64,000 nt of DNA. Origin: Armatimonadota bacterium (lineage in GTDB: Bacteria > Armatimonadota > SYMT01). Under the pieces are notes generated by a model. It was not told the DNA's origin, ran no database searches, and worked only from the letters and a program-made list of their open reading frames with translations. The number at the start of each line of letters is the position of its first letter. The stretch's first letter is position 1. Positions 2,847 to 57,425 of this stretch are shown in pieces. The position numbers and the translations under genes were made by a program. Location: assembly GCA_041690135.1 (NCBI GenBank), contig JAWLHY010000005.1, positions 340,106 through 404,105 of the forward strand, in the 5' to 3' direction.

Positions 2847-5800
2847 TTAGATTTCTGCCTCTCGCAACGCCATTTCGAGCGCTACCACCGGGTGCACGGC
2901 CTTTCGTCCCGTTGCATCGAGGATCTGGTGCCGGCAGCTCGTCCCCGGAGCCACGAGTAGCGTTTCCTCGCCTGTCTCACGCACCGCCGGGAAGAGGCTC
3001 ATCTCTCCGATTTGCAGCGAGAGTTCATAGTGCTCCTTCTCGTAACCGAAGGAGCCGGCCATCCCGCAGCAACTGGAGGCGATCGGCGTGACGGTGTAGC
3101 CTGGGACCATCCGCAGTGCCTCGAGTGATCGCTGCGTCCCCAGGACGGCTTTCTGGTGGCAATGGCCATGGTACAGCACTCGCCGATCCTGCACGCGAAA
3201 CGGCCACCCTTCCTCGCTGACTCCCTTCCTCCCCGCGGTTCGCTCTCCGGCTCCCGACTCGCCTTCTGCCTTCTGCCCACTGCCTTCTGCCTTCTGCGTT
3301 TCGCCTTCTGACTTCTGGCCCACAGCCCCGGCGCCCAGCCCCCGGCCATGCCGTTCGAAGAGGAAGTCCTCCAGCATCCAGGCGTTGGCCGCCACGTCAT
3401 CCGCGGATGCCCCCAGCCGGAACTCGCGGTACTCATCTCGATAGGTTACAAGGCAACTGGGCTCCAACCCGACCAGGGGGATGCCTCTCCTGGCGGCATC
3501 CGCCAGCGTGGCCACGTTGTGGACCGCGTTCTCACGCGCCTGGGCAAGCATTCCCTTGGAGATCATCGGCCGGCCGCAGCACCGCAGGGCCGGAACCTCG
3601 ACCCGGTAGCCGAAAGCCTCGAGCACCCGGACCGCTGCCTGGCCCACCTCCGGCTCGTAGTAGTTGGTGTACGTATCCGCCAGCAGCATGACGGATCCGT
3701 TCGCGCCGGCCCGCGAGGACGGCTGATGCAAGCGCCACCAGGCCATGAAAGTCTTCTCCGCAAACGGCGGGAGTGGGCGCCGGCGATCGATGCCGATCCA
3801 GCGGTCCATCAGGGAGCGCACCAGCGGCAGCTCCAGCAACCGATTGGCCAGTGGCGCGAGCGCCGACCCAAGCCGACCGGCCTGCGCGGCCTGGGCGAAC
3901 ACCTGCGCGCGGAGCGGCGTGCCGTGGCGCGCGTGGTAGTGGGCCAGGAACTCGTATTTGAGCTTCGCCATGTCCACGTTGGAAGGGCACTCGCTCTTGC
4001 AAGCCTTGCATTCGAGACAGAGGTCGAGCGCCTGGTGGATGCGCGGGTCGGCCAGGTCCGGTTCGCCGGCCTGTCCGGAGAGGACCATCCGGAGCACGTT
4101 GGCCCGGCCCCGGGTGGAGTGCTCTTCTTCCAGGGTGGCGCGGTAGGAGGGACACATTGCCCCATCCAGCTTCTTGCGGCAAGCTCCCACCCCGCTGCAC
4201 ATCTCCACCGCACCCGCAAAACCATGGTCGCGGCTGAAATCGAGGGTGGTTTCCACATGCGCCATGCGGTAACTCGCCTCGCCGCCGCCCAGTACCCGTA
4301 GGTGCGTGTGCATGGGAGGTGCGTCCACGATCTTGCCGGGGTTCAGCAGGCCCTGGGGATCGAAGGCTCGCTTGACTTCGCGGAACGCCTCGTAGACCTC
4401 CGGCCCGAACATCTTTTGCTGCCACTCGGACCGGGCGAGGCCATCGCCGTGCTCGGCGCTGATGGTCCCTCCATACCGCAGCACCAGGTCGGCGACTCCT
4501 TCCGAAATCGCGCGCATGCGGTCCCGGTCCGCGGGCTCCTTGAGGTTGAGAATCGGTCGCACGTGGAGACAGCCCACGCTGGCATGGGCGTAGTAGCAGG
4601 CGGTCAAACCGTGCCCGGCGAGCAGGTCGCGGAAGTCACGGATATAAGCGGCCAGCCCCTCCACCGGCACCGCCGTGTCCTCCACGAACCCGGCCGGCTT
4701 GGCGTCGCCCTTCATCCCCATGAGCAGGCCCAGGCCCCCTTTGCGGATGTCCCACACGTCTTTCTGCCGGGCGGGGTCGGAGAACAGGTGGTGCGCGTGA
4801 CCCACGCCGGACGTTTCCAGCTCGCGCTGCAGTTCCCGGAGGCCGTCCACGGCTTCCTCGGGGGTTTCGCCGAACCCTTCGATTACGAGCAGCGCCTCCG
4901 GATCGCCCTGGAGGAAGGTACGCGCCTTGACCAGTTCCCGGTTGTCGCGGGTGAGATCCAGGATGATCCGGTCGATCAACTCCACGGAAGCCGGGGCGAA
5001 CTCCACGATCCGCGGAACGGCTTCGAGGGCCGCGAGCAGGTCGCGGAACTGGACCACCAGCAGCGCCGTGGCGCGCGGCCGCGGGACCAGGTTCAGCTTG
5101 GCCTCGGTAACGATACCGAGCGTGCCCTCCGACCCGACCATGAGATGCGCCAGGTTGTAACGGCCGTGGCGCACGATCTCGTCGAGGTTGTAACCCCCGA
5201 CGCGCCGCATGATGCGGGGGAAGTGGCGTTCGATGGCTTCCCGGTGATTGCGGCAAATGTTCCAGATCTCCCGGTAGATCCGCCCTTCCAGCGTGTCCGC
5301 CTCTCCGCGCCGCTGCCATTCCTCCGGTGGCACCGCGTGGAAGTGCGCCCGGGAGGCATCCGAAAGAACCACCTGCTGTTCCAGCACGTGGTCGATCGTC
5401 TTGCCGTAGCGGATGGACCGGGCACCGCAGGAGTTGTTGCCCATCATGCCGCCGATACTGGCGCGGTTGCTGGTCGCTACGTCGGGCGCGAACATCAGGC
5501 CATGAGGCCGCAGGAGGGCGTTCAGCTCATCCAGGATGACGCCGGGTTGTACCCGCACCCAGCGCTCCTCGGCGTTCACCTCCAGCACCGCGTGCATGTA
5601 CTTGGTGAAATCCAGCACCAGCGCTGTGCCCACGGTCTGTCCCGCCAGGCTGGTCCCGCTTCCCCGTGGGAGCAAGGGGACGCCGTGGGTGGCCGCAATC
5701 CGCATCGATTCCACCACGTCCTGGGCGTCCCGGGGGCAGATGACCCCTACCGGCATCATCTGGTAGATGCTTGCATCGGTGGCATACATGAGCCGCGAGA

Positions 5801-5927
5801 CGTCGTCGAACCGCACCTCGCCGCGGATCCGGCTCTGGAGATCTGCCTCCAGTGGCTGTCTTTGGTTCGGCCGGCTCACCGTCCCCACTCCCCCCTGTAC
5901 GCCCATCGGCTGTAAGGCCTCTCCCAT
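2847..5927 (-). CDS. FAD-linked oxidase fused to 4Fe-4S and CCG domains (YdiJ-like; D-2-hydroxyacid / glycolate-oxidase-type dehydrogenase), paralog 1
   Basis: 1026 aa. N-terminal FAD-binding PCMH domain (GSGTSLAGQ). Central CLECKACKSECP ferredoxin motif. C-terminal CCG repeats (CCG...). Same architecture as the ORF at 41678..44923. Contains an EG/QK-rich insertion absent from the paralog. Confidence 0.85.
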   Translation of the reverse strand: MGEALQPMGVQGGVGTVSRPNQRQPLEADLQSRIRGEVRFDDVSRLMYATDASIYQMMPVGVICPRDAQDVVESMRIAATHGVPLLPRGSGTSLAGQTVGTALVLDFTKYMHAVLEVNAEERWVRVQPGVILDELNALLRPHGLMFAPDVATSNRASIGGMMGNNSCGARSIRYGKTIDHVLEQQVVLSDASRAHFHAVPPEEWQRRGEADTLEGRIYREIWNICRNHREAIERHFPRIMRRVGGYNLDEIVRHGRYNLAHLMVGSEGTLGIVTEAKLNLVPRPRATALLVVQFRDLLAALEAVPRIVEFAPASVELIDRIILDLTRDNRELVKARTFLQGDPEALLVIEGFGETPEEAVDGLRELQRELETSGVGHAHHLFSDPARQKDVWDIRKGGLGLLMGMKGDAKPAGFVEDTAVPVEGLAAYIRDFRDLLAGHGLTACYYAHASVGCLHVRPILNLKEPADRDRMRAISEGVADLVLRYGGTISAEHGDGLARSEWQQKMFGPEVYEAFREVKRAFDPQGLLNPGKIVDAPPMHTHLRVLGGGEASYRMAHVETTLDFSRDHGFAGAVEMCSGVGACRKKLDGAMCPSYRATLEEEHSTRGRANVLRMVLSGQAGEPDLADPRIHQALDLCLECKACKSECPSNVDMAKLKYEFLAHYHARHGTPLRAQVFAQAAQAGRLGSALAPLANRLLELPLVRSLMDRWIGIDRRRPLPPFAEKTFMAWWRLHQPSSRAGANGSVMLLADTYTNYYEPEVGQAAVRVLEAFGYRVEVPALRCCGRPMISKGMLAQARENAVHNVATLADAARRGIPLVGLEPSCLVTYRDEYREFRLGASADDVAANAWMLEDFLFERHGRGLGAGAVGQKSEGETQKAEGSGQKAEGESGAGERTAGRKGVSEEGWPFRVQDRRVLYHGHCHQKAVLGTQRSLEALRMVPGYTVTPIASSCCGMAGSFGYEKEHYELSLQIGEMSLFPAVRETGEETLLVAPGTSCRHQILDATGRKAVHPVVALEMALREAEI

Positions 5928-12416: not shown

Positions 12417-14420
12417 ATGTCGCGTTTCTACATCACCACCCCGATCTACTACGTCAACGATATCCCGCACATCGGAACCACCTACACGACGGTAGCGGCG
12501 GACATCCTGGCGCGGTTCCATCGGATGCGTGGTGAGGAAGTGCTATTCGCCACGGGGACGGATGAGAACGCCACCAAGGTTGTTCAGGCCGCCGAGCAGC
12601 GAGGTAAGGACCCGCGTACGTTCGTGGACGAGATGGCGGAGAACTTCAAAAAGGCGTGGGCCGACCTGAACATCAACTACGATGTCTTCATCCGGACCAC
12701 CGAAGACCGCCACACCCGCGCCGTGCAGGCCTTCTTTGAGACGGTGCAGCAGCGAGGGGACATTTACAAGGGCCCCTACGAGGGTTGGTACTGCGTCTCC
12801 TGCGAAACGTTCTTCACCGCCGAGGAGGCGCCGGAGGTCAATGGCGAGCGCCGCTGTCCCGACGTGCCCCAGCACGCGCCGCTCAAGCTGGTACAGGAAG
12901 AGAACTACTTCTTTGCGCTTTCCCGCTACGGGGATCGCCTGCTCGAGTGGATCGAGGCGCACCCGGAGTTCCTCCAGCCGGAGTTCCGGAAGAACGAAGT
13001 CATCGCGTTCATCAAGCAGGGGCTCCGGGACGTCTGCATCACCCGCTCCGCCACGAATTGGGGGATCCCGGTTCCCGGCGACCCGTCGCAGGTGGTTTAC
13101 GTCTGGTTCGACGCGCTCATCAACTACATCACGGTCGCCGGGTATCCGGACCGTACCGGGGACCTCGCAAAGTGGTGGCCCGCCGACCTGCACCTGGTGG
13201 GCAAGGACATCTACGTGCGGTTCCACTGCACCCTCTGGCCGGCGATGTTGATGGCGGCGGGGTTGGAGCCTCCCCGGCAGGTGTTCGGGCACGGCTTCTG
13301 GATGAGCGAGGGGATCAAGATCTCCAAGACTCTCGGCAACATGATCGAGCCGCTAAAGCTGGTGAATGCGCTGGCGGAGATCGTCGGTGCCCGGCGGGAG
13401 ATCGCGGTCGATGCCATCCGCTACTACCTGTTTCGGGAGATGCCTTTCGGCGAGGATGGGAATTTCCAGCGCGCCAACCTGCTCCAGCGGTTCAACAGCG
13501 ACCTGGCGAACGACCTGGGGAACGCCCTGAACCGCTCCCTGTCGATGACCCGGCAGAACTTCGAGCTCCGGGTGCCGTCGCCCCAGGAAAGCGAAACACG
13601 ACTGGAAGAACTGGCCCGGGCTACTCATCCGCGGGTGACCGCCGCACTCGAGGCGCTCGATTTTCAGGGGGCTCTAGTGGCCGCGACGGAGTACGTCAGT
13701 GCCATCAACGGCTACCTGGCGGAGCGCGCGCCGTGGATCCTGGCGCGTGAAGGAAAGAGCGAGGAGCTCGGAGGCGTTCTTTATCACGCCCTGGAGGCCC
13801 TCCGGGTGGCTTCCACCTGGTTGGCGCCCTTTATGCCGGAGGCGATGGCGGAGGTGCGCCGCCAGTTGGGCCTGGGTGTGCTGGCTCCGGAGTGGAATTC
13901 GGCGGGGGAATGGGGCCTCCTTCAGCCGGGAGAAGTACTGGAAGAGCCGGCGCCCATCTTCCCGAGGATAGACAAGAAGGTTATGGAAGAAGCACTCAAA
14001 CAACTGGATCAGAAATCCGGCGCGGCGCCGGCCGAGCCGGCGCCTGCGGCGAAGGAGAAGGCAGCCCCCGCACCAGCCGCGGAGCCGGAAGCGCCGGCTA
14101 CGATCAGCATCGACGACTTCATCAAGGTGGAACTCCGTGTCGCGGAGGTCTTGAGCGCCGAGCGGGTACCCAAGTCGGACAAGCTCCTGCACCTGAAGGT
14201 TAGCCTGGGCGATGAGGAGCGTTCCGTGCTTGCCGGGATGGCCGAGTACTACGAGCCGGAGGCGCTGGTCGGCCGGAAAGTGATCATGGTCGCCAACCTG
14301 GCCCCGCGGAAAATGCGCGGCCTGATGTCCGAAGGCATGCTGCTGGCGGCGGAAGCGGACGGGAAGGTGAGCCTGCTCCAGCCGGACCAGGATCTCCCCG
14401 CCGGGGCCCGGATCCGCTAA
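12417..14420 (+). CDS. metG: Methionyl-tRNA synthetase with C-terminal tRNA-binding (EMAP/Trbp111-like) domain
   Basis: FYITTPIYYVNDIPHIGTTYTT (HIGH-type motif), KISKTLGN (KMSKS), Zn knuckle CVSCETF...CPDV. C-terminal ISIDDFIKVELRVAEV...GMLLAA OB-fold tRNA-binding domain. Confidence 0.95.
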   Translation: MSRFYITTPIYYVNDIPHIGTTYTTVAADILARFHRMRGEEVLFATGTDENATKVVQAAEQRGKDPRTFVDEMAENFKKAWADLNINYDVFIRTTEDRHTRAVQAFFETVQQRGDIYKGPYEGWYCVSCETFFTAEEAPEVNGERRCPDVPQHAPLKLVQEENYFFALSRYGDRLLEWIEAHPEFLQPEFRKNEVIAFIKQGLRDVCITRSATNWGIPVPGDPSQVVYVWFDALINYITVAGYPDRTGDLAKWWPADLHLVGKDIYVRFHCTLWPAMLMAAGLEPPRQVFGHGFWMSEGIKISKTLGNMIEPLKLVNALAEIVGARREIAVDAIRYYLFREMPFGEDGNFQRANLLQRFNSDLANDLGNALNRSLSMTRQNFELRVPSPQESETRLEELARATHPRVTAALEALDFQGALVAATEYVSAINGYLAERAPWILAREGKSEELGGVLYHALEALRVASTWLAPFMPEAMAEVRRQLGLGVLAPEWNSAGEWGLLQPGEVLEEPAPIFPRIDKKVMEEALKQLDQKSGAAPAEPAPAAKEKAAPAPAAEPEAPATISIDDFIKVELRVAEVLSAERVPKSDKLLHLKVSLGDEERSVLAGMAEYYEPEALVGRKVIMVANLAPRKMRGLMSEGMLLAAEADGKVSLLQPDQDLPAGARIR

Positions 14421-20958: not shown

Positions 20959-21648
20959 ATGGCGAGAAGACGCCGAAATCGCAGTGAGAACCCGCCACCG
21001 GTGGAACTCTCCGAGAGCAGGGACAGGGTGGTGATCGAACCCGCGGAAGCCGGTGAGCCCACCGAGGCCGGTCGGAAAGGCGGCGCAGTGATTGCGACCC
21101 ATCCAGCGGCCGGCATCCACATCGCTCGCGCCGAGAGAGAACGCGTGGGCGAGCGTACGGGTCTGGTCAACTGGGGCGCCGCGCTGCTGGCGGGGCTGGC
21201 GGCTGGGATCCTGCTGTTGCTTCTGGAAGTGCTCCTCGTTCCGATTGCGTTCCGGGAGAGCCCCTGGGCGCCGATCCGGATGATGGCGTCCGTGATCTTT
21301 GGAGAGTCGCTGATCACCTCCGCAGCGCCGCTCGGCCTGGGAGCCATTGTGGTGGGCCTGCTGGTCCACTTCGCGGTCTCCCTCTTGTTTGCGGTGGTGC
21401 TGGGCATGCTGGTTCGCTGGTTCGACTGGGGCCCCGCGGCGCTCTTCGGCGCGGGCTTCGGACTGGTGATGTACATGATCCTGTTCCACGCGACCTGGAC
21501 CTGGCTCGGCTGGTTCGCGGCGGGGAGAACAGCGGTTAACATCCTGCTCCATGTGCTCTTCGGCATCACCGCGGCCCTGGTCTACCGCGCCGTGGCGGGC
21601 CCTCCGGAACCCGTGGCGGACTACGCCCAGCCGGATCTGGGTAACTAA
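20959..21648 (+). CDS. Membrane protein, hypothetical
   Basis: 229-aa ORF with a charged N-terminal region followed by ~5 TM helices (LLAGLAAGILLLLLEVLLVPIAF..., GLLVHFAVSLLFAVVLGMLV...). Confidence 0.5.
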   Translation: MARRRRNRSENPPPVELSESRDRVVIEPAEAGEPTEAGRKGGAVIATHPAAGIHIARAERERVGERTGLVNWGAALLAGLAAGILLLLLEVLLVPIAFRESPWAPIRMMASVIFGESLITSAAPLGLGAIVVGLLVHFAVSLLFAVVLGMLVRWFDWGPAALFGAGFGLVMYMILFHATWTWLGWFAAGRTAVNILLHVLFGITAALVYRAVAGPPEPVADYAQPDLGN

Positions 21649-21693
21649 GGCCTGCCGGGGCGCCGGAGACTCGCGCCCGGCAGGAGGTAAGAA

Positions 21694-21945
21694 ATGCCGA
21701 GACAGGTGAGCGTCTTTACGCAGCCCGGGTGACCCCCGTGCAGCCAGGTGAAGGAGTTTCTTTCACGCAATAACGTACCGTTCGCGGAACGGGACGTCCG
21801 CACGGATCCACAAGCCATCGACGAACTGCGCCGGTTGGGCGCCATGATGACGCCGGTCACCGTGATCGACGGTCAGCAGGTGCTCGGTTTCGATGAGCCG
21901 CAGTTGCGCAATCTGCTGGGGCTGAACCAGCAAAAAGCCGCCTGA
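21694..21945 (+). CDS. Candidate selenocysteine-containing glutaredoxin-like (thioredoxin-fold) protein; in-frame TGA at 21730-21732 read as Sec
   Basis: The ORF track begins at GTG 21748 and gives a Grx-like protein lacking its active site. Extending the same frame upstream gives TGA(21730) and then ATG 21694 preceded by AGGAGG (spacing 6). Reading TGA as Sec gives MPRQVSVFTQPG-U-PPC-SQVKEFLSRNNVPFAERDV..., which is the beta1-CxxC-alpha1 architecture of glutaredoxin/NrdH with U replacing the first Cys. Confidence 0.6.
21748..21766 (+). promoter_or_regulatory. Candidate bacterial SECIS-like hairpin downstream of the in-frame UGA
   Basis: 7-bp stem GUGAAGG/CUUUCAC (one G-U) with apical loop AGUUU. 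It begins 16 nt after the UGA. The loop G/U lie ~25 nt from the UGA, within the range reported for bacterial SECIS elements. Confidence 0.4.
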
Positions 21946-22022
21946 GAAGCCAGATCCGCTGGAGCTTGGAGGGAGAGGTGTGGGAGCGAGCCTCGCACAC
22001 CTCTCCTACTCGTTCCGGGTAA

Positions 22023-25031
<3,009 letters not shown>

Positions 25032-41677: not shown

Positions 41678-44600
41678 TTACTTCCTGCGCCGTTGTAGGG
41701 CCCATACCAGCCCCGCGCCCAATACGGCGCCGGTTCCCACGATGGCGGCGGTGCGGAGGGTAGCGGCCGCCTTGTCCGCCGCGTCCTCTTCGAGGCGGTC
41801 GAATGCGCTTTCCGGGTAGTCGCGGGGCACCGGCTCGTCCTGGCGCAACGCCATCCGGAGCACCTGGGCCAGGTGGAGGGCCTCGCGATCCGTGGTCTGC
41901 CGGATCTGCTCGTGGCAACTGAATCCGTCGGTGATGATCAGCGCGTCCTTGGGGGCTTCCCGGACCGCCGGTAACAGTACCCGCTCGCCGCATTGCATGG
42001 AGACCTCGTACTTGTCGCCCGGTTCGAAACCGAAGGCGCCGGCCATCCCGCAGCAGCCGGAGTTGAGGACCTGGAAATCGAGGCCCATCGCCTCGAACAG
42101 CTCCCGGTCTGCATCCAATCCGGCCGTGGCCTTGTGGTGGCAATGGCCATGCACGACCGCCTGGCGCGTCAGGTCCGGCAGCTCGAAGTCGGGAGCCCTC
42201 TCGCGCAGGAACTCACCGAGGAGGAAGGTCTGCCGCTGCAGTCGCATGGCGTCCTCGTGGTTCGGGAACAGGTTCGTCAGCTCTTCGCGGAAGACGGACA
42301 TGCAGCTCGGTTCCAGGCAGACCACGGGGACACCGGCCTGGATCTCGGGCTGCAGCTCCGTGAGGATCTGTCGCAGCCACTGCTTGGCGGTGTCGAGGAA
42401 CCCCCAGTCGTAGAGGGGCCGGCCGCAGCAGAAATCGCGCTGCGGCACGCGGACCTCGAACCCGGCCGCCTCCAGTACCTCCACGGCGGCCTGTGCGATC
42501 TCCGGGTGGAAGTGGTTGTTGAAGGTGTCCGGCCAGAGGATGACGGGACCGCGCCTGGAGTCTCGGCCCCGGGCCGACGCCTGGTTCCTGGCCCCAGCGC
42601 GTTTCTGGAACCACTGCTTGAACGTTTGGGGCGCGAAGGCGGGCAGTTCCCGGTCCGGGGCGATGCCGCCGGCGCGTTTCATCAGGTCGCGGAGACCGGG
42701 CGCGTGAGCGACGAAGTTGGCCATTCCCGGAAGCAGCGAAGCGAGACGCGCCCACCAGTGGATGAACCCGAAGATATAGGCCTGGCGGGGGCGCCGCTTG
42801 CCCTCGAAGTAGTGGGCGAGGAATTCCGCCTTGTAGGTCGCCATGTCCACCTGCACGGGACACTCCTGCTTGCAGCCTTTACAGGAGAGGCAGAGCTCCA
42901 GCGATTCCTTGACGTGCTCGCTCTGCCAGCCGTGCTCAAGCGGATCGCCCTGCAGCATCTCGAAGAGCAGCCGCGCCCGTCCGCGGGTGGTGTGCATCTC
43001 CTCGCGGGTGGCCATGTAGCTGGGGCACATCGTCCCCACATCTTCCTTGCGGCACTTCCCCACCCCCACGCAGCGCTCCATGGCGTAGCCGAAACTGAAG
43101 TGATCGCTGGGGAACTGGAAGTGGGTTTTCAACTCCGGCTGTAGGTAGGCGGCTCCGTAGCGCAGGTTGGTCGTGATGGGGTCGGCGTTGATGACCTTGC
43201 CGGGGTTCATCTTTCCCTCGGGGTCCCAGATCGCCTTGAACTCCCGGAACGCCTCCATCAATTCCTCGCCGAAGAGCTTCGGCAGCAGCTCGCCGCGCGC
43301 CTGGCCGTCGCCGTGCTCTCCCGAAAGGGAGCCGCCATACCCAATGACCAGGTCCGAGGCTTCGTCCAGGAAGCTGCGCCATTTGCGGATGCCCTCCGCT
43401 GTTTTCAGGTCGAAGTCGATGCGGGCGTGGATGCAGCCGTCGCCGAAATGCCCGTACACGGAGGTGTGATAGTCGTATCTCTCCAGGAGCTTGTGCAAAT
43501 CCCGGAGGTAGTGGCCGACCCTCTCCGGAGGGACCGCTGAGTCCTCCCAACCTTCCCAGTTTTCCCTTTCGCCCGGAACGTGGGAGGTTGCACCCAGGCC
43601 GTTCTCCCGGACATCCCAGATCATCTCCTGCTGTTCCGGGTCGTCGAACAGCTTTACACTGGGAGCATCCTCCCGGTCGCGCAGCTTCTCCATCAGGCGG
43701 CAGGCGCGTTCCCGGGCCTCCTCCACGGTATTCCCGCCGAACTCCGCAAGCAGCCAGCCGTTGCCTTCCGGAAAAAGGCAGATCTCCTTCCGGTTGAGGT
43801 CCTTCTTCCGCAGGTCCTCGATGAACTTGCCGTCGATCCCTTCCAGGCCCGTCGGCTGAAACTCCAGCACCTCCGTGACGTGGTCCGCGGCCTGGTACAC
43901 GTCCGGATAGCCCAGGAGCAGCAGCACCCGCTCGCGAGGGAGCGGAATGAGGTGGGTGGTGACCTCCAGCACGACCACGCAGGTGCTTTCCGTGCCGGTC
44001 AGCGCCCGCGCCACGTTGAAGCCGTTTTCCGGGAGCAGTTCGTCCAGGTTGTAGCCGGAGACCCGGCGCGGGAGCTTCGGAAATCGCTCGCGGATGAGGT
44101 CCGCGTAGCGGTCGCGGAGCGCCTTCAGGCGTCCGTAGATCTCCCCTTTTCGACCGCCCTCACGGATGATCCGCTCCAACTCCTCTTCCGAGGTGGGGCC
44201 GACCCGCATCCGGACGCCGTCGTAGGTGAGGATCTCCATCTCGTGGATGTTGTCGCTGGTCCGCGAGCCCAGTCCCGCCATCCGCGCCATCACGGAGTGC
44301 ACCCCGCAGGAGTTGTTCCCGACCATCCCTCCAAGCGTGCACCAGCGGTGCGTGGCCGGGTCCGGCCCGAACGTAAGGTCGTGCTCCCGCGCCGCCTTGC
44401 GCAGGGTATCGAGTACGCAACCTGCCTGGACCCGCGCCAGGCGCCGCTCCGGATCGATCTCCAGTACCCCGTTCAGGTACTTGGAGAAGTCCATCAGCAC
44501 GGCCACGTTGCAGCACTGGCCGGCGATGCTGGTTCCCCCGCCCCGCGCCAGGAGCGGCGCCCCGTACCTGCGGGCCGCGCCCACGGTCGCCACGACATCC

Positions 44601-44923
44601 TCCACGTTGCGGGGAATCACCACGCCGATGGGCACCTGGCGGTAGTTCGAGGCGTCCGTGGCGTAGAGCGCGCGGCTGCCCGGATCGAACCGCAATTCTC
44701 CGTCCAGCAGCGATTCCAACTCTTGCTCCAGGCGGTCGGCGGCGATCTCACGCCGGCTCGAGCGATTGGCGGGGGCCGTGGAAGCGTTCGGCAGGACGGG
44801 AAGCGGTTCCGGAGCGGTGGTTCCGGATTCCTGGCGGGTGGTGGCGGACATGCTCTCTCCCTTCGCGCGCGCCAGCCACTCGCCCGGGCGGACCCGTCGC
44901 GGTGGCCGGCGGTGGTTCGTCAC
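41678..44923 (-). CDS. FAD-linked oxidase fused to 4Fe-4S and CCG domains (YdiJ-like), paralog 2
   Basis: 1081 aa, same domain order as 2847..5927: FAD PCMH domain (GGGTSIAGQ), CLSCKGCKQECP, C-terminal CCG motifs. Lacks the EG/QK-rich insertion. Confidence 0.85.
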   Translation of the reverse strand: MTNHRRPPRRVRPGEWLARAKGESMSATTRQESGTTAPEPLPVLPNASTAPANRSSRREIAADRLEQELESLLDGELRFDPGSRALYATDASNYRQVPIGVVIPRNVEDVVATVGAARRYGAPLLARGGGTSIAGQCCNVAVLMDFSKYLNGVLEIDPERRLARVQAGCVLDTLRKAAREHDLTFGPDPATHRWCTLGGMVGNNSCGVHSVMARMAGLGSRTSDNIHEMEILTYDGVRMRVGPTSEEELERIIREGGRKGEIYGRLKALRDRYADLIRERFPKLPRRVSGYNLDELLPENGFNVARALTGTESTCVVVLEVTTHLIPLPRERVLLLLGYPDVYQAADHVTEVLEFQPTGLEGIDGKFIEDLRKKDLNRKEICLFPEGNGWLLAEFGGNTVEEARERACRLMEKLRDREDAPSVKLFDDPEQQEMIWDVRENGLGATSHVPGERENWEGWEDSAVPPERVGHYLRDLHKLLERYDYHTSVYGHFGDGCIHARIDFDLKTAEGIRKWRSFLDEASDLVIGYGGSLSGEHGDGQARGELLPKLFGEELMEAFREFKAIWDPEGKMNPGKVINADPITTNLRYGAAYLQPELKTHFQFPSDHFSFGYAMERCVGVGKCRKEDVGTMCPSYMATREEMHTTRGRARLLFEMLQGDPLEHGWQSEHVKESLELCLSCKGCKQECPVQVDMATYKAEFLAHYFEGKRRPRQAYIFGFIHWWARLASLLPGMANFVAHAPGLRDLMKRAGGIAPDRELPAFAPQTFKQWFQKRAGARNQASARGRDSRRGPVILWPDTFNNHFHPEIAQAAVEVLEAAGFEVRVPQRDFCCGRPLYDWGFLDTAKQWLRQILTELQPEIQAGVPVVCLEPSCMSVFREELTNLFPNHEDAMRLQRQTFLLGEFLRERAPDFELPDLTRQAVVHGHCHHKATAGLDADRELFEAMGLDFQVLNSGCCGMAGAFGFEPGDKYEVSMQCGERVLLPAVREAPKDALIITDGFSCHEQIRQTTDREALHLAQVLRMALRQDEPVPRDYPESAFDRLEEDAADKAAATLRTAAIVGTGAVLGAGLVWALQRRRK

Positions 44924-50972: not shown

Positions 50973-53777
50973 TCATGTGGGCAATGCGCCCGGCGCGAGA
51001 AGCCAATTCCAGTCCGTCTGGGTGAAGGAACCAGTGCGGAACCGTTCTCGCAGAGCGTGGACGTCGGGAGCGAGGTTGGGGACCGCTTCCTCTGCGGCGA
51101 CCGCTTCGGCGTGGGGCATGGCGTCGGCGGCGAGGTCTGCGAGCGTCAGCACAGGAAGGCTACAGGTACCGCTGCGTACGAGCTGCTGCACGGCAGTGAT
51201 GACTGCAATCTCCTGGGGCAGCTCGGCATGGAGGTTGCGTGCGAGGAAACGGCCGCCGACCTCAGGAGCGTTTACGGCGCCAGCGGAGCGGAGCGGAACC
51301 GTGCCGTCTCCGCGAGTGTTGGCGGTGCCAAATAGGTTGGCGACGGTGGGGTGCCGTTGGCTGACGACCAGGTAGGCACGCGTCAGCAGCGGACTGCCGC
51401 TGATCTTGCCCTTCAGCGCGCGGCTGCGCTTGAGGTGCAACTCGGAGGGCGCCAACTGTGGATCCGGCCAGCCGTTGGTGCGGTAGAGGGGGTGCGCGTC
51501 CCCGAAAACGGCGGGGTCTGGCAGCATGTCGAGCAGGCCGGAGAGCGAGCAGGCCATCAGCTGGAAATCGCGAACGGTATCGTTCCGTGATAGGAACGCG
51601 AGCTTCTTGAGGGTATCGTAGGTGCCGAGCACGGCCTGCATCGACGCATAGCTCCCGTGCAGGGGGGAGCCCAGCAGCACTGCGCTCTCCACCCGATCGC
51701 TCCATTCCCGGTGCCGGGCCGCGTAGAGGCAGGCCACCAGACCACCCATCGAGTGGGCGACGAGCGCGAACCTTTTGTGCGGACGCTGGGCGGCGAGTTC
51801 CTCGATGAACCGGTGGAGACTGTCCGCCAGTGCTTCGATCGGCTTGCGCCAATCGTAGGAGAACTCGTTGACTACGAACCCGGCGTTGCGCCAAGTTCGG
51901 GAGGCGCGGGCGTAGGTGAGCCGGAGCATGCCGTCCGGCTTGAGCACCTGCCCCGAGGTGGCTTCGCGCACGCCGTCCGGATCGAGCGAGAGGCGCTCGG
52001 CCAGATCGCCCGCGAAGAACGCCAGGGGGTTGATCCAGAGCCGCCCGCCCATGCCGGCGGTGCGGGCTAGGTGCCCGCCGAGGATGCCGTGGATGAAGAC
52101 GATCTCCGGCAGCGCGGGATCGGCGCGGCGCCCGAAGAGCCCTGACAGGAACGATTCCTCCAGGGCGACGGACTCCACCGTGGGCTCCCCGAGCGATACC
52201 AGGGTCAGTTCCCGGATGAGGGCATCAGCCTCCGCGGGCGGCAGCACCGCGTAGAGGCGCCGGGCCGTTTCGGCGGGATGGTCCTGCAGCTCGGCGGCGA
52301 TGGCCGCATCATCGGTCTGCTCGTACCAGGCGGTGGGCGAGACCGCTTCCGGCGCTGCTGCCGGGGTCAGCCCGAGGGACGCCGGCGCGGGCAACGGAGG
52401 ACCGGGCGCTGCTGGGGCCGGCGTGCCAGTCTCGCTCGCCGCCGGGTTGGAGCGGGCCGCGCGCCGCGTGTAGACGGTGGGACCGGAGCCGCGGTAGGTG
52501 TCCCAGTAACGGAGCCATTCCGGATCCGGCTGCTCCGGCGCGTCTTCCGGCACAGGGCTGAACCGGAAGCCCAGCGCCCGCAGGTAGGGATCTCGAGCCA
52601 GCTCCCAGGCGGGCACCGCCCAGTTGGTGAGCAGGTACTGCCCCGCGAAGTGGAGGCCGATCACCTCTCCCGTGAGCAGATCGAGGATCGCAGAGCCGGA
52701 GTTACCGGTTAGAGTGGAGCAGTCGTGCGTGAGCGCCTCCACCTCCGGGCGATTGAGGGGCGCAAAGCGGGAGAGCGGCTCCCGGCCGCCGTTCCGCACC
52801 ATGCCCAGGAGCCCGGGGAGGAGCCGCTTGCGGCCGTAGATTCCCCGGAACTCCCGGTCCTGGACCTCTACGTTGGAGAAGGGGTTCCGGTGCGGATAGC
52901 CCACGGTGACCACGTAGCGGCTCTCCAGCGGGCCGGCGGGGCGGACGGAGGCGAGGGTCAACGGGCGGGGCATCGCAGCCCCTAGCGGCGCCCGCACGGC
53001 CAGGACCGCGGCGTCCCAGTATGGGTGGATAAGGGCGACGTCTTCCACCTCCAGCAGCACTGGCGCCGGCTCCGGGGTGCCGGACGGGTGGACCTCACGG
53101 CGGGTGTCCAGAGCCGCCGCTCCGGGCCGGTAGGAGAGCGTACCGCTGCCGGGGTGCCCATGACCCGACGCGAACAGCTGCGCGACGTGCCGATTCGTCA
53201 GCAGCAGCCCCTCCCCCACGAAGAAGGCGGTGCCGCCGAACGGACGGAGCGGGTCCTGCGGCAGTTCCACGCGGCCAATGGCGGGGAGGGCGGCCTCCAG
53301 CAGTTCCCGCTCCCGGGGGCGGCCGAGGAATTCGAAAGGGAAGGCCGGCGTCTGGTACGTACCGCCGGTGACGTCGATGACGGGGCGCTCTCCGGGCAGG
53401 ATCACCTCTTCCAGCACTAACGCTTCCCGGGCGGTGAGTGGGTCCCCGTTCACCAGCTTGGTGACTACGTTCTGCGCGGTGCGGATCGTCTCGTCGGTAA
53501 GCCCTGGCGATGGGAGGGTGAAGGACTCGAAGGCCGCTTCCTCCCGGGCAGCCTGCTGCTGCCGGGACGTCAGCATCCGGGCGACGCTTTCCTCATTGAT
53601 CGGCCGCGCGGGTGGGAGCAGAGCCGGCGCGCTTCCTTCCGCCGGGATCCCCTCTTCTTCTCCCCGCTGGAATCGCTCGTGGAAGGCCTGCGCGGGCCGA
53701 TCCGAAGGGATTTTGCGTACCTGCTCGAAGTAGCGCAGGAGACGCTGCTGGTGGGCAGGAGAGTACGGATCGCTCAT
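50973..53777 (-). CDS. Multidomain putative effector: N-terminal helical adaptor, trypsin-like (S1) serine peptidase domain, Pro/Ala-rich linker, C-terminal alpha/beta-hydrolase (LCAT/PGAP1-like lipase) domain
   Basis: Start set at ATG 53777 (MSDPYSP..., RBS AAAGGA); the ORF track start is 53876. Peptidase region GGTAFFVGEGLLLTNRHV (His) ... TGNSGSAILD (Ser). Lipase region ...FALVAHSMGGLVACLYA (GxSxG nucleophile elbow). Confidence 0.7.
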   Translation of the reverse strand: MSDPYSPAHQQRLLRYFEQVRKIPSDRPAQAFHERFQRGEEEGIPAEGSAPALLPPARPINEESVARMLTSRQQQAAREEAAFESFTLPSPGLTDETIRTAQNVVTKLVNGDPLTAREALVLEEVILPGERPVIDVTGGTYQTPAFPFEFLGRPRERELLEAALPAIGRVELPQDPLRPFGGTAFFVGEGLLLTNRHVAQLFASGHGHPGSGTLSYRPGAAALDTRREVHPSGTPEPAPVLLEVEDVALIHPYWDAAVLAVRAPLGAAMPRPLTLASVRPAGPLESRYVVTVGYPHRNPFSNVEVQDREFRGIYGRKRLLPGLLGMVRNGGREPLSRFAPLNRPEVEALTHDCSTLTGNSGSAILDLLTGEVIGLHFAGQYLLTNWAVPAWELARDPYLRALGFRFSPVPEDAPEQPDPEWLRYWDTYRGSGPTVYTRRAARSNPAASETGTPAPAAPGPPLPAPASLGLTPAAAPEAVSPTAWYEQTDDAAIAAELQDHPAETARRLYAVLPPAEADALIRELTLVSLGEPTVESVALEESFLSGLFGRRADPALPEIVFIHGILGGHLARTAGMGGRLWINPLAFFAGDLAERLSLDPDGVREATSGQVLKPDGMLRLTYARASRTWRNAGFVVNEFSYDWRKPIEALADSLHRFIEELAAQRPHKRFALVAHSMGGLVACLYAARHREWSDRVESAVLLGSPLHGSYASMQAVLGTYDTLKKLAFLSRNDTVRDFQLMACSLSGLLDMLPDPAVFGDAHPLYRTNGWPDPQLAPSELHLKRSRALKGKISGSPLLTRAYLVVSQRHPTVANLFGTANTRGDGTVPLRSAGAVNAPEVGGRFLARNLHAELPQEIAVITAVQQLVRSGTCSLPVLTLADLAADAMPHAEAVAAEEAVPNLAPDVHALRERFRTGSFTQTDWNWLLAPGALPT

Positions 53778-53926
53778 GGATCTATCCTTTAAGTTACAGG
53801 CGAACCGGCGACCGGGCGTGGGGACGGCCTGAGGCGACCGGCAATGCAGGGAACTTTCTACCGGATGGTTGAACAATAGAGGGTGTCATTCCTCGCTCTG
53901 GGGGTAACGAGGCTGCCCGTATTGAG

Positions 53927-54014
53927 ATGAGTGCCGGTTGAGCCTGCGCCTGGTGAGCGAGCTAGGGGCTACAGGGGGCAAAGCCTGCCTGCGCAGGCTG
54001 GGAGTTCCGGCACT
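53927..54014. promoter_or_regulatory. Long interrupted inverted repeat in the divergent promoter region of the two peptidase genes
   Basis: GAGTGCCGG-TTG-AGCCTGCGC ... GCGCAGGCT-GGGAGTT-CCGGCACTC: two 9-bp arm segments on each side with a ~40-nt central region. Located between divergently transcribed genes 50973..53777(-) and 54342..55526(+). Confidence 0.45.
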
Positions 54015-54341
54015 CAACCAACGGTCTTCCCGAGAGGCGGGTACAAGCATGGTCTATTTGTGCTCGCCAGGACCCCGGACGAGAGATCCAATCGGGAGGC
54101 AGGTACCGGTCTGGCCTGGTGCCGAGATCCCTCCTGCAGTTAGGATGACTCCTTATGGGGGGCGACAATGCCCGGGTACGGTATTTTGTAAGTGGAAGCC
54201 GTTCAGTAGTGTTGCGTTCAGGATAACTGGTCCCGCAAGGTGTGAAATGCGTGAATGCCGTTGTTTGAGACCCACTACGACGAACCGGTTTCTGCTTTCG
54301 GTCAGCAATAGGTCAGCATTCGAACTACCTGACTACCGACT

Positions 54342-55526
54342 ATGCCCACACTCACGCGAGCTCAAGAAGATAACCTGATCCGGATCCTCTCCCGGCATCC
54401 GGATTTCCAGACGGCGGAGGACCGGCTGCGGTTGCTGCTGCAGATCATCCCAACCGCGGCGGACGGGGACGAGACCGCGTACCACGTGAACCTGGGAAAG
54501 GATGCCATCCGGGTCGCGGAGGGATTGCTCGCGCAGCTCAAGTTCGAGGGGGTGGGCCCGGACGGGGTCCACCGCCTGCGGCACATGGTAGCCGGTCTGC
54601 GGGAGAAGGTGCGAGACGAGCGGGACCGGGGACGGCTAGCGGGGATGCTCACCTACCTGGACCAGCACACCCCGGCGGTGGCGCCGCCCCCGCCGCCCCC
54701 GGCGCCGCTCCGCCCGGACCCGCAGCCGCGGCTGGACCCCGCGGACTGGCGGGGCAAGAATTCCGACGCACCGCCGTATGAGAAGGTGGTGCGGGTAAAT
54801 ACGCTGCGGCAGTTCTATCTGCTGGAGCGTGCGGTGCCTGCTTCACGCGGGGTGTTCCGCATCGAGGGACGTCCACCCGGCACGGAAGGCGAGCCGGCGG
54901 CTTCCACCGGCTTCCTCATCGCCCGCGGTGTGGAGACGGCCCCCGGCGGACCAAGGGTGGCGCTAGCGATGACGAACCACCACGTGATCGCCACTCTGGA
55001 AGAGTTCCCCGGTTATGAGTGCTGGTTCAATTACCGGCTTGACCTGGACGGCCGCGAGCCGGTGCCCTCGCCGCAAGGGTTCTGCAAGCTGCAGCCGCTG
55101 CCGCTGGCCGAGTGGTTCTTTACGGACGCGGGGCTGGACGTAACGGTGTTTGCGCTCGACGATGCGGTGGTGCCGGCGAATGCGGTGGCTCTGGGGGTGC
55201 GAGAGGCCCGCCCACTGGAGGGGGCGCGGGTGCCGATCATTCAGCACCCGAACGGGGAGTACCTGCAGATCTCGTTCCAGAGCAACTTCATCGCGTACGC
55301 GAACGACGAGATCCTGCAATACACCACTACTACCCTGCCCGGCTCTTCGGGCTCCCCTGTGTTCAATGAGCGGTTCGAGGTGATCGGGATCCACTCAATG
55401 GGCGGGGACCTGCCCCACCCCGGTCAGCCAGGACTGACTACCCTAATCAACCAGGGCACTTCAATCAAGGCGATCCTGGCGGTTCTGCCGGGGGCTATCC
55501 GTGGGCGGGTTATGGTGCTGGGGTAA
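54342..55526 (+). CDS. Trypsin-like (S1) serine peptidase with N-terminal alpha-helical adaptor (EAD-like) domain
   Basis: N-terminal ~110-aa helical region (EDNLIRILSRHPDFQTAEDRLRLLLQIIP...). Pro-rich linker (PPPPPAPLRPDPQPRLDP). Catalytic domain with LAMTNHHVI (His) and TLPGSSGSPVF (Ser). Confidence 0.75.
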   Translation: MPTLTRAQEDNLIRILSRHPDFQTAEDRLRLLLQIIPTAADGDETAYHVNLGKDAIRVAEGLLAQLKFEGVGPDGVHRLRHMVAGLREKVRDERDRGRLAGMLTYLDQHTPAVAPPPPPPAPLRPDPQPRLDPADWRGKNSDAPPYEKVVRVNTLRQFYLLERAVPASRGVFRIEGRPPGTEGEPAASTGFLIARGVETAPGGPRVALAMTNHHVIATLEEFPGYECWFNYRLDLDGREPVPSPQGFCKLQPLPLAEWFFTDAGLDVTVFALDDAVVPANAVALGVREARPLEGARVPIIQHPNGEYLQISFQSNFIAYANDEILQYTTTTLPGSSGSPVFNERFEVIGIHSMGGDLPHPGQPGLTTLINQGTSIKAILAVLPGAIRGRVMVLG

Positions 55527-55728
55527 GGTTGTGGGCTCGGGCAGAGCGGCCCGACGGTCGTAGTCTTGGCGCCGAACTTCGCGAATCGCTCGGATGTCAT
55601 ACCGTTCGTATGGCAGAGGGACAGGAAGCCAGGAAGCCAAGAGTGATGCCAAGCGACTGAACTCGCGGCTATAAAACGCGAAGCGAGCCTTCGCAGGGTG
55701 TAGCACCGACCTATCCACCCGCTCGCCC

Positions 55729-57408
55729 TTGAGTGGAGGGGGAGGTGTTAGCCCGGCTGACGGACAATTAACACTTGGGAGACAGCGGCTAATCCGAATA
55801 AGCCGCGACGAGGCACTGTCGTCTCCGGTACTGGTCTTGAGTTCGAACGTGCTCTTTCCACTGTTACAACCGGCCGACGAACGGCTGCTCCGCGACTATC
55901 TGCTCTCCGTGCTGGCACGAACCGGAGACGAGCCGGAGCGGCGCCGGGCCTTGTGCAAATACTTGCCGGACTCGGTAGCCCAGCTGCCGGCGGAGGCGTG
56001 GCTGACCGAGAGGCGGCTGCGACTGGACCGATCCCACGCTGAGATCCTGGAGCAGTTCTTCGAAGCGCTTCAGAGCCATCCGCCGGCGCTGTTGGCGCAC
56101 TTGGAAGTGCTGAGCCAGAGCGTGAAGGACGGGCCGACACGCGAGGAGTTCGCGCGGATGCGGGACGGGCTGCGGTTGGCCCTCGATCCGCTGACGGAGG
56201 CGCAGCGCCTTCTGGACGCCGCCGCTTCGGCGGACCCGGACGTCCTTCCGGACGCACTGGCCGCCGGTCTCTGGAAGGCGCTGGGGAAGCGCGAGTCGGG
56301 TACGTTCTGGCAGGCGGTGGCGCTGCTGGTGCCGCATCCCGCCCGCACTTACCAGGAGTCGGGACAGGAAGTGCTGCGCCTGCCGCTAGTGGTGGCGCTG
56401 GAGCGAACCGCGGCCCGGGTGGGCTTGTCCGGGCCAGACCGGACCCAGTATGGCGAACTCGTCCAGCAGGCGGTGGAGCGTCTTTACCCGCCGCCTCCCA
56501 AAGCCCCGGAGGCAGACCAAACAGCGCCGGGGCCTACCGCGCCGGCCTTCGATCCGATCACCGTGTACGTGCTGGCACTCGGCTCTAACACCCTGAGCAC
56601 GGCGGACACGCGCTACCGGCTGTGGTACACGGATCCGCAGGGAGACCGCGGCGCCCGAGACCTGACCGGCACCCTGAAGGAACTGCAGGCCGGCTTCTCC
56701 GCCTGGATCAGTGACGTCCTGTTCGAGTGGTCCGGCGATACCCCACTGGTGGAGTTTGTGCTGCCCGAGGAGTGCCTGGAGTGGGACGTGGAGCGTTGGG
56801 AAGTGGCCCTCAACCCGCGCAACCCAGCCACCGGAAAGCCGATTGGCACGGCGTTTCCGGTGGTGCTGCGGAACTGGGGGCGGTACGAAGCTCGGCCGCA
56901 CATCAAGCGCCTGGAGCGCCGCTGCAAGGAGTTGAAGGGCACCGGCACCCTGTACTGGTGCCACGAGCCGGCTCATGAGCCGGGCTTGCCGGTCTACCTG
57001 GACCACTCGGACTGCCGGACGGTGCTCTACCTGGGCGCGGGCTACCCCTTGCAGCGGACCGGCGGTAGAAACCTCTGGCTGGCGGTACTCCGGAACGGGG
57101 TTCCAGTAGTGATCTGGCGCCGCACCGCCGGCAGCGGAGCGGTGCCCATCCCGGACCAACTGGAGAAGCTACTCCATCAGGCACAGCGTCTCCACCCGTT
57201 CAACGAGCTGCCAAGTAAGATCAAGGACTGGCGCAGCCTGGTGATCCAGGAGCCACCGCAGTACGACGACACGGCGGATGAGGTCTCCCTGCTCTGGGAG
57301 AACCCCTACCGGCTCCCCGCCGCCCCACCCCTGCCCGAGGGGGCACCCACCGCACCCGACGAAGCTCGCCCGGCGCCGGCGCCCACCAGCACGGGGCGGA
57401 TCGATTGA
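55729..57408 (+). CDS. VMAP-like protein (vWA-MoxR-associated protein position) with N-terminal EAD-like helical motif
   Basis: 559-aa ORF immediately upstream of and overlapping (4 nt) the MoxR ATPase gene. There is no in-frame ATG near the 5' end, so TTG 55729 or a downstream GTG is the likely start. The N-terminus DERLLRDYLLSVLARTGDEPERRRAL resembles the N-termini of both peptidase effectors. No enzymatic motif recognised. Confidence 0.55.
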   Translation: MSGGGGVSPADGQLTLGRQRLIRISRDEALSSPVLVLSSNVLFPLLQPADERLLRDYLLSVLARTGDEPERRRALCKYLPDSVAQLPAEAWLTERRLRLDRSHAEILEQFFEALQSHPPALLAHLEVLSQSVKDGPTREEFARMRDGLRLALDPLTEAQRLLDAAASADPDVLPDALAAGLWKALGKRESGTFWQAVALLVPHPARTYQESGQEVLRLPLVVALERTAARVGLSGPDRTQYGELVQQAVERLYPPPPKAPEADQTAPGPTAPAFDPITVYVLALGSNTLSTADTRYRLWYTDPQGDRGARDLTGTLKELQAGFSAWISDVLFEWSGDTPLVEFVLPEECLEWDVERWEVALNPRNPATGKPIGTAFPVVLRNWGRYEARPHIKRLERRCKELKGTGTLYWCHEPAHEPGLPVYLDHSDCRTVLYLGAGYPLQRTGGRNLWLAVLRNGVPVVIWRRTAGSGAVPIPDQLEKLLHQAQRLHPFNELPSKIKDWRSLVIQEPPQYDDTADEVSLLWENPYRLPAAPPLPEGAPTAPDEARPAPAPTSTGRID

Positions 57409-57425
57409 AAACACAGGTATCTCCC

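Follow-up and report, generated by a model that had tools for sequence, protein, structure and literature searches.

Glutaredoxins (Grx, Pfam family PF00462) with the active-site motif UxxC, where U stands for selenocysteine (Sec), are listed among the prokaryotic selenoprotein families in surveys that span the years 2005 to 2026 (PMC1088965, PMC1794560, PMC9312934, PMC13188914). The closest representative with a solved structure is glutaredoxin-1 of Clostridium oremlandii (cGrx1, PDB entry 7C10), a native selenoprotein whose active site reads U(C)PXC and which was crystallized with the catalytic Sec replaced by Cys (PMC7642778); the numbering of this residue as U13 comes from a U13C/C16S construct of Grx1 used earlier (PMC4479559). 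The subject of this analysis is a gene of the same type in a 64-kb stretch of DNA assigned to an Armatimonadota bacterium (contig JAWLHY010000005.1; the whole stretch is referred to below as the window). The gene, at positions 21694-21945 of the forward strand, very probably encodes an 83-residue Grx/NrdH-like thiol/selenol-disulfide oxidoreductase with Sec as the catalytic residue 13, in the motif U13-P-P-C16. This assignment is based on sequence, namely on the anatomy of the open reading frame (ORF), conservation of the in-frame TGA and of the codons that flank it on either side, the fit of a downstream hairpin to the bacterial selenocysteine insertion sequence (SECIS), constraint at the RNA level, and homology to a protein that is proven to be a selenoprotein. 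Within the known UxxC Grx selenoprotein family, the gene represents a new member, mis-annotated and probably from Armatimonadota: the domain scores above the Pfam gathering threshold, the predicted Sec codon opens the N-terminal CxxC after strand β1, and the homology is full-length. An earlier note on this DNA had proposed a UxxC Grx-like selenoprotein with a SECIS just downstream, and the conserved TGA column, the β1 strand, the features of the hairpin and the alignment with Sec13 of cGrx1 all support this proposal.

In the source annotation, the gene starts at GTG 21748. Direct reading shows that the same frame runs upstream through a TGA (21730-21732, forward strand) to an ATG at 21694 which is preceded, 6 nucleotides (nt) away, by the Shine-Dalgarno-like sequence AGGAGG (21682-21687, forward strand), precisely as the earlier note had it. 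From this ATG, 12 sense codons (MPRQVSVFTQPG in translation) lead to the TGA, which is codon 13, the predicted Sec codon and the first position of U-P-P-C; CCC CCG TGC (P-P-C) follows, the translation continues as PPCSQVKEFLSRNN..., with SQVKEFLS after PPC, and the frame ends at the TGA 21943-21945. The TGC at 21739-21741 (forward strand) encodes Cys16, the predicted resolving cysteine of UxxC, which aligns with Cys16 of cGrx1 and is invariant as TGY in an alignment of 80 sequences, a position that the search pattern required. The 70 codons that follow the UGA have a normal coding composition, with a GC content of 0.77 at third and 0.39 at second codon positions.

When U is replaced by C, the match of the full ORF to the PF00462 profile extends over positions 1-59 of 60, with a score of 57.4 bits (E = 1.7e-15; the gathering score is 22.9 bits). 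The ORF that starts with GTG matches only positions 16-59, with 31.6 bits, so that the annotated product lacks β1 and the CxxC redox motif, in agreement with the previous description of this ORF. It is very unlikely that the annotation is nevertheless correct, that is, that the cell makes the 65-residue product from GTG 21748, a truncated Grx-like domain without a redox motif, and that the upstream frame is an untranslated leader. This is indeed the gene call of the source genome, with similar calls in six relatives, and the short product still scores above the Pfam threshold, but gene callers cut at UGA by design. Furthermore, the short product would be deprived of β1 and the entire active site (profile positions 1-15); direct reading finds no purine-rich site comparable to AGGAGG before the GTG, which moreover falls within a stable hairpin, in its 5' arm; and the supposed leader codes for a β1 strand that is conserved across phyla and comes with a ribosome-binding site (RBS) and an ATG.

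Of the solved structures, 7C10 is the top match (E = 2.5e-18); the two proteins align without gaps over 79 residues, 47% of which are identical (pairwise E = 2e-27). The TGA is codon 13 and the Cys is residue 16, a numbering identical to that of cGrx1. The next matches are BC3987 (3ZIJ, a Cys form with CPPC), followed by Spx and NrdH. The codon for Pro54 (21853-21855, forward strand; T53-P54) aligns with the VP/TP of cGrx1 and BC3987 and matches the cis-proline loop of thioredoxin-fold proteins; judging from the fold, this proline would adopt the cis conformation.

A search of 5.8 billion proteins shows that the nearest database relatives are all gene calls of 63-71 amino acids covering only ~70-78% of the query, which is the pattern expected given that gene callers stop at UGA. 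When the nearest relatives were traced to six encoding contigs, an in-frame TGA was found at the identical column in 6 of 6, with the hydrophobic strand upstream of it conserved and an ATG ~12 codons upstream of the TGA; the purine-rich, RBS-like stretch before this ATG was judged by eye and not scored. Among the nearest relatives, the active site reads QPG-U-PPC or a near variant in five, QRG-U-MFC in one and HER-U-VAC in one. Compared with the window gene, the relative L001 (64% identical) shows mostly synonymous changes, as judged by eye, in the 12 codons upstream of the TGA.

The conservation of the TGA was assessed more broadly by scanning one genome per GTDB species with the pattern TGH-N6-TGY-N6-GTGAARGAGTTYCTTTCAC, which allows TGA, TGC and TGT alike. 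At least 119 species genomes match this pattern, and among the matches listed, 118 of 119 have TGA and one (Pelotomaculum) has TGT. Judged by their record titles, these 119 matches come from Acidobacteriota (~48), Chloroflexota (33), Bacillota (26), delta/Desulfobacterota (4), Planctomycetota (2) and others (6); the Bacillota include the isolates Natronincola peptidivorans, Fonticella tunisiensis, Alicyclobacillus mengziensis, Wukongibacter baidiensis and Acetoanaerobium pronyense. In the listed matches, the two positions that separate U from C are free to vary, and the identity to the window product is 29-63% (median 44%). The β1 motif [IV]-[IVT]-V-[YF]-[ST] is present upstream of the TGA in more than 90% of 194 members, most of which have an ATG 9-15 codons upstream; in the window product, β1 is VSVFT and precedes U13-P-P-C16.

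The Cys forms of the family carry Cys at the TGA column (CPPC in Bacillus, CPYC in Chlorohelix and CPHC in Pelotomaculum). The window TGA aligns with Cys13 of 7C10, with the Cys of 3ZIJ, and with TGT in the Bacillus (L248), Chlorohelix (L247) and Pelotomaculum (L011) genes. This alignment with Cys-containing homologs, which the earlier note had suggested as a check, confirms the U/C column and, with it, the claim that the TGA sits where the first active-site Cys belongs and restores U-P-P-C. Homologs that start at the GTG and lack a CxxC had been named there as evidence to the contrary; what the homologs display instead is a conserved upstream β1, ATG and TGA column. The same data bear on the possibility of a sequencing or assembly error, in which case the true codon would be TGC or TGT and the product an ordinary CPPC glutaredoxin. 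A single base separates TGA from either codon and the source is probably a metagenome-assembled genome (MAG), but independent instances of the same TGA occur in more than 200 contigs of unrelated projects, always together with the hairpin, and this explanation can be given almost no credence.

Some members of the family depart from the common pattern. The sole TGT case in the 119 listed genome matches (L011, Pelotomaculum sp. PtaU1.Bin035, 5843-5879) retains the full SECIS hairpin and looks like a recent Sec-to-Cys conversion. In L041 (Acidobacteriota MFD00905.bin.1.54), there is an apparent frameshift soon after VKEFLSRAGVTYTV, which represents either a decaying gene or an indel in a long-read assembly. 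Sec-Grx genes with a bacterial SECIS are also present on contigs binned as a Promethearchaeota MAG (L024, labeled as an Asgard archaeon), Bifidobacteriaceae (L059) and Betaproteobacteria (L080); these unexpected taxa could reflect mis-binning or horizontal transfer.

The hairpin that is predicted to serve as the SECIS, GUGAAGGA-GUU-UCUUUCAC (21748-21766, forward strand), lies within the codons V19-K-E-F-L-S-R25, at the start of helix α1. It can be read either as a stem of 7 base pairs (bp) with the loop AGUUU or as a stem of 8 bp with the loop GUU, and begins 15 nt after the UGA; the earlier note had correctly given the 7-bp hairpin and its AGUUU loop and had placed it 16 nt after the UGA, a distance that direct reading corrects. 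The published model of the bacterial SECIS (PMC13188914) specifies an apical loop of 3-9 nt, an upper stem of 4-16 bp and a G in the first two loop positions, as well as a spacing of 16-37 nt between the UGA and the loop and a minimum free energy (MFE) of -7.5 kcal/mol or lower. In the window hairpin, the loop is 3 (GUU) or 5 (AGUUU) nt long, the stem has 8 or 7 bp, A-G-U-U-U fits N1-G-[G/U]-N-N2, and the loop is located 22-23 nt from the UGA. Its G-U is the loop feature to which SelB of E. coli responds. With 2 flanking nt on each side, the MFE is -8.4 kcal/mol (z = -3.28; 1 of 200 shuffled sequences is as stable); a 61-nt fold from the UGA around the hairpin is unremarkable (z = -0.35). The idea that this is a SECIS-like hairpin in the region where bacterial SECIS elements occur is therefore upheld by four criteria of the model and by the near fixation of synonymous sites.

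Because the pattern used in the genome scan fixed the sequence of the hairpin, metagenomes were scanned with a protein-level pattern, TGA-N6-TGY-N6-GTN-AAR-GAR-TTY-YTN, in which all synonymous sites are free. Codon usage was then counted for the 77 unique Grx-like members among the metagenome matches listed, with the rest of the same ORFs as background. Within the hairpin, Val is encoded by GTG in 75 of 77 sequences (43% in the background), Glu by GAG, which supplies the loop G, in 77 of 77 (52%), Leu by CTT, the U of which pairs with A5, in 74 of 77, or 96% (13%), and Phe by TTT in 63 of 77 (31%). The Lys codon is AAA or AAG, either of which pairs with U14. The base that follows the Ser codon is C in 67 of 77 sequences and closes the stem with G1, which accounts for the almost exclusive use of R, Q or H as the next residue. 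When pairs are counted in the 80-sequence alignment, 90% of the cells are paired, compared to 39-73% when the partners are slid by 1-3 columns. Selection acts on this hairpin at the RNA level.

Two of the Cys forms provide controls. In the Cys form of Bacillus sp. N5-665 (CPPC, peptide VKEFLK), the codons are GTG AAA GAA TTT TTA and no hairpin is formed, and the Cys form of Chlorohelix allophototropha (CPYC) has the peptide VKDYLT. A minority variant, GUGAAGG-AGUU-CCUUCAC (peptide VKEFLHQ), appears to retain a 7-bp stem, with the register, as read by hand from the listed sequences, one base shorter. In Acetoanaerobium noterae (L246, NZ_CP154629.1, 3031-3085), a Sec-form Grx with UPHC and the helix VKNYLT is followed by a downstream hairpin of a different sequence, so that the Sec-Grx family has more than one type of SECIS; this 2.6-Mb replicon is filed as a plasmid and is almost unannotated, with nothing annotated at the Sec-Grx match.

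Low-level near-cognate read-through of UGA occurs in bacteria. Conceivably, the UGA could be read through without Sec, by near-cognate insertion of Trp or Cys, a suppressor tRNA or a reassigned code, with a sulfur-only or inactive protein as the product; the Sec machinery of the host is itself predicted rather than observed. This scenario is highly improbable. TGA is the normal stop of 14 of the 38 called genes of the window, which indicates a standard, not a reassigned, genetic code. Moreover, the TGA is tied to one hairpin with G-U in the loop (118 of 119 among the matches listed), which is the signature of SelB-dependent recoding, and the orthologous position is a proven Sec in C. oremlandii Grx1.

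Several observations nonetheless weigh against the assignment of the gene as a functional selenoprotein. The MFE of the bare 19-mer is only -6.8 kcal/mol, and the -7.5 threshold is passed only with the flanking bases. Covariation in the 80-sequence alignment is weak, with only 3 double-change cells (two from G-C to C-G and one from G-C to A-U), and RNAalifold finds no consensus pairs in the same alignment; since covariation is scarce because the hairpin is nearly invariant, the argument for selection on the RNA rests on the synonymous-site statistics. The product scores under every curated NCBIfam cutoff. A scan of the window for other TGA-bridged split ORFs outside called genes finds none besides the 21694-21945 locus, so no second selenoprotein gene is seen there. 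Neither selA, selB, selD nor a tRNA-Sec is present within the window: ARAGORN reports 0 tRNAs and Rfam, at gathering thresholds, 0 matches across its whole length, and a Pfam scan of its 39 genes finds no SelA, SelB or SelD domain. Finally, no Armatimonadota name appears among the 119 listed genome matches, and a single literature search turned up no mention of Sec use by members of this phylum.

The last two of these points, the missing sel genes in the window and the lack of documented Sec use in the phylum, are also what would be expected of a relic, i.e., a Sec-Grx gene in a lineage that has no Sec machinery or has lost it, where UGA 21730 terminates translation and yields a 12-residue peptide from a non-functional remnant that is still undecayed. 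The frameshifted-looking L041 shows that damaged or mis-assembled copies can occur, and the Cys-converted L011 that lineages can abandon Sec. In the window gene, however, the RBS, the ATG, the β1 codons, the UGA, Cys16, the family-consensus hairpin and the 70 downstream codons are all intact, and the upstream codons differ from those of L001 mostly synonymously. The window is a small part of the genome, so that the absence of sel genes from it carries little weight, and because every element of the gene is intact, a relic, although the chief remaining risk to the assignment, is considered unlikely. An intact selenoprotein gene predicts Sec use by its Armatimonadota host, whose genome presumably encodes the Sec machinery, and selenium is probably incorporated at residue 13. 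Across 1.46 Mb of family-member loci, ARAGORN detects no tRNA-Sec near the members. Some Planctomycetes possess full sets of sel genes (PMC4807772). As a separate observation, the window carries the planctomycete-style families DUF1501, DUF1549/1553/PSCyt1 and DUF1559. A planctomycete origin, which these families had suggested, was set aside on account of the MetRS gene (12417-14420): its close relatives that bear names, up to 72% identical, without exception belong to Armatimonadota.

Under the selenoprotein assignment, the most likely mechanism is the following. The ribosome would start at ATG 21694, and SelB·GTP·Sec-tRNA(Sec), bound to the 21748-21766 hairpin, would bring Sec to UGA 21730, competing there with release factor 2 (RF2). 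The ribosome would then melt the hairpin and read its bases as V-K-E-F-L-S-R, the start of helix α1, so that the same nucleotides would serve as both signal and code. In the enzyme, the selenolate of Sec13 would attack a disulfide or sulfenic acid of the substrate, Cys16 would resolve the mixed Se-S intermediate to give an intramolecular selenenylsulfide, and a cellular reductant, glutathione or thioredoxin reductase, would reduce the latter again.

The genomic context does not provide further clues to the function of the gene. The upstream neighbor is an unannotated membrane protein gene (20959-21648) and the downstream neighbor encodes aconitase (22104-25031). In neighbor clustering across the family loci, neither of these genes recurs beside family members, and no conserved partner (thioredoxin reductase, MsrA, peroxiredoxin or sel genes) is detected; neither msrA nor a glutathione-related gene is adjacent to the Grx gene of the window. 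A GC-rich hairpin without a U-tract (21959-22018, forward strand; MFE -39.3 kcal/mol, z -3.14) lies 14 nt after the stop codon; it is not called as an intrinsic terminator and may be a transcript-end or stabilizing structure between the Grx gene and the aconitase gene at 22104.

Elsewhere in the family, recurrent arrangements are observed. In ~56-63 loci (e.g., L042, L052, L082, L167, L169), the Sec-Grx gene is flanked on one side by a divergently oriented gene that resembles CoA-transferase family III and on the other by one that resembles class I/II aminotransferases; the examples are Acidobacteriota or untitled metagenome contigs, apparently an Acidobacteriota subgroup, and the window has no such neighbors. 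Some 24 Sec-Grx members (including L010, L021, L023, L028, L050, L051, L056, L062, L067, L072, L086, L089, L099, L111 and L124) have a C-terminal extension of ~100 residues, probably a PDZ domain, which brings the products to 160-190 amino acids; those checked are from Chloroflexota except for L050, an unclassified MAG. On a Chlorohelix allophototropha plasmid (L247, NZ_CP128401.1), the Grx gene, a Cys form, precedes a distinct gene for a PDZ-domain protein, and the two lie among TusA, rhodanese, DsrE and TrxB genes. Three metagenome contigs (L140, L239, L240) encode a different family of more than 100 amino acids, W-Q-P-G-U-T-S-C-(L/V)-R-V-K-E-F-L, with an in-frame TGA and without the GUGAARGAGUUYCUUUCAC hairpin; this may be a further selenoprotein family that has a SECIS of its own.

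Two other features of the window deserve mention. Paralogous fusions of ~1,000-1,080 amino acids, consisting of FAD-linked oxidase, 4Fe-4S dicluster and CCG domains (GlpC/glycolate-oxidase-like), are encoded at 2847-5927 and 41678-44923, both on the reverse strand; the GlpC-like Fe-S oxidoreductases are among the known selenoprotein families, and both window copies are uninterrupted. The region 50973-63999 contains a cluster in which genes for two trypsin-like peptidases are accompanied by those for a VMAP-C protein and a MoxR-like AAA ATPase and by an ORF of more than 1,800 amino acids; this ORF has wHTH-Hsp90_Na-associated and TGS domains and extends beyond the edge of the window. The cluster looks like a vWA-MoxR-type conflict or signaling system.

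The main practical consequence of the analysis is a correction of the annotation: a deposited 65-residue "glutaredoxin" becomes an 83-residue selenoprotein, the catalytic residue of which had previously been cut off. Existing knowledge of Sec insertion and of the glutaredoxin mechanism is unchanged by this gene and, given that the family has been known since 2005 (PMC1088965) and has been characterized experimentally, the novelty is modest. A short follow-up may be worthwhile on the breadth of the VKEFLS-hairpin subtype and on the near invariance of its dual-coding SECIS across phyla. The compact, conserved and helix-encoding SECIS could be of use in sequence mining, where it would act as a signature, or in selenoprotein engineering, where a short SECIS is needed.

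More tentatively, and with slightly more doubt than confidence, the gene can be assigned to a very large and largely unannotated Sec-Grx subtype, the SECIS of which is a near-invariant, cross-phylum dual-coding module of 19 nt. This module, GUGAARGAGUUYCUUUCAC, encodes V-K-E-F-L-S-[R/Q/H] and, on the same tentative reading, would be common to Acidobacteriota, Chloroflexota, Bacillota, Desulfobacterota, Planctomycetota and probably Armatimonadota. If so, the Sec-Grx would be no rarity but would rank among the more widespread selenoproteins of soil bacteria, and the module would provide a simple signature for Sec-using lineages, including phyla with undocumented Sec use. The invariance of the module, set against a protein identity of only 29-63%, would then point either to a hairpin that SelB binds with particular universality or to a horizontal spread of gene and SECIS together.

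Among the families with which the window product can be compared, the UXX-star selenoproteins (NF041212, NF041211, NF041114, NF047338) share the Grx-like fold and the use of Sec; they were rejected as a match because their Sec is located three residues from the C-terminus (U-x-x-stop), whereas the window product has its Sec in the N-terminal redox motif, ends with ...NQQKAA and scores 51 against a cutoff of 66 bits (NF041212 and relatives). The best NCBIfam similarities are to the NrdH-redoxin and YruB families (TIGR02194, TIGR02196), Grx-like proteins of ~75-85 amino acids with an N-terminal CxxC, from which the window product differs in having Sec in place of Cys and in the lack of nrdEF or rubredoxin neighbors. 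Both were considered and set aside: YruB scores 71.0 bits against a curated cutoff of 88.55 (TIGR02196) and NrdH-redoxin scores 50.8 against 85.75 bits (TIGR02194) and 18.8 against 131 (PRK10329), with no nrd genes in the window. The Bacillus cereus BC3987 type (3ZIJ/3ZIT; E = 1.4e-15), together with the homolog from Bacillus sp. N5-665, is similar in fold, length and the peptide QP-x-CPPC...VKEFL; unlike the window gene, it has Cys (TGT) for Sec, and the VKEFL codons of N5-665 do not form the hairpin.

The greatest similarity is to Clostridium (Alkaliphilus) oremlandii cGrx1 (7C10/7C12/7C13, Sec-to-Cys forms), with which the window product shares U13/C16 in U-P-x-C, the VKEFLS helix start, the (T/V)P loop and the GFD motif. 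The differences are the active site (UPPC in the window product and UPHC in cGrx1), the host, which is a high-GC bacterium, probably of Armatimonadota, and not a Clostridium, and the absence from the window of a counterpart to the proposed cGrx1 partner, the selenoprotein MsrA (no MsrA Pfam match in the 64 kb). Natronincola and Acetoanaerobium pronyense, which are relatives at the genus level, carry the same hairpin as the window at the DNA level, which suggests that the SECIS of cGrx1 itself is probably identical to that of the window gene. More generally, the gene shares with the Grx selenoprotein family (PF00462, UxxC) the Pfam domain, Sec as the first residue of UxxC, a SECIS directly downstream and the existence of Cys homologs. 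Within this family, the VKEFLS-hairpin subtype alone accounts for genomes of at least 119 GTDB species and for at least ~100 metagenome contigs and, given that the seven closest database relatives of the window gene are all truncated in the same way, Sec-glutaredoxins are under-counted in protein databases.

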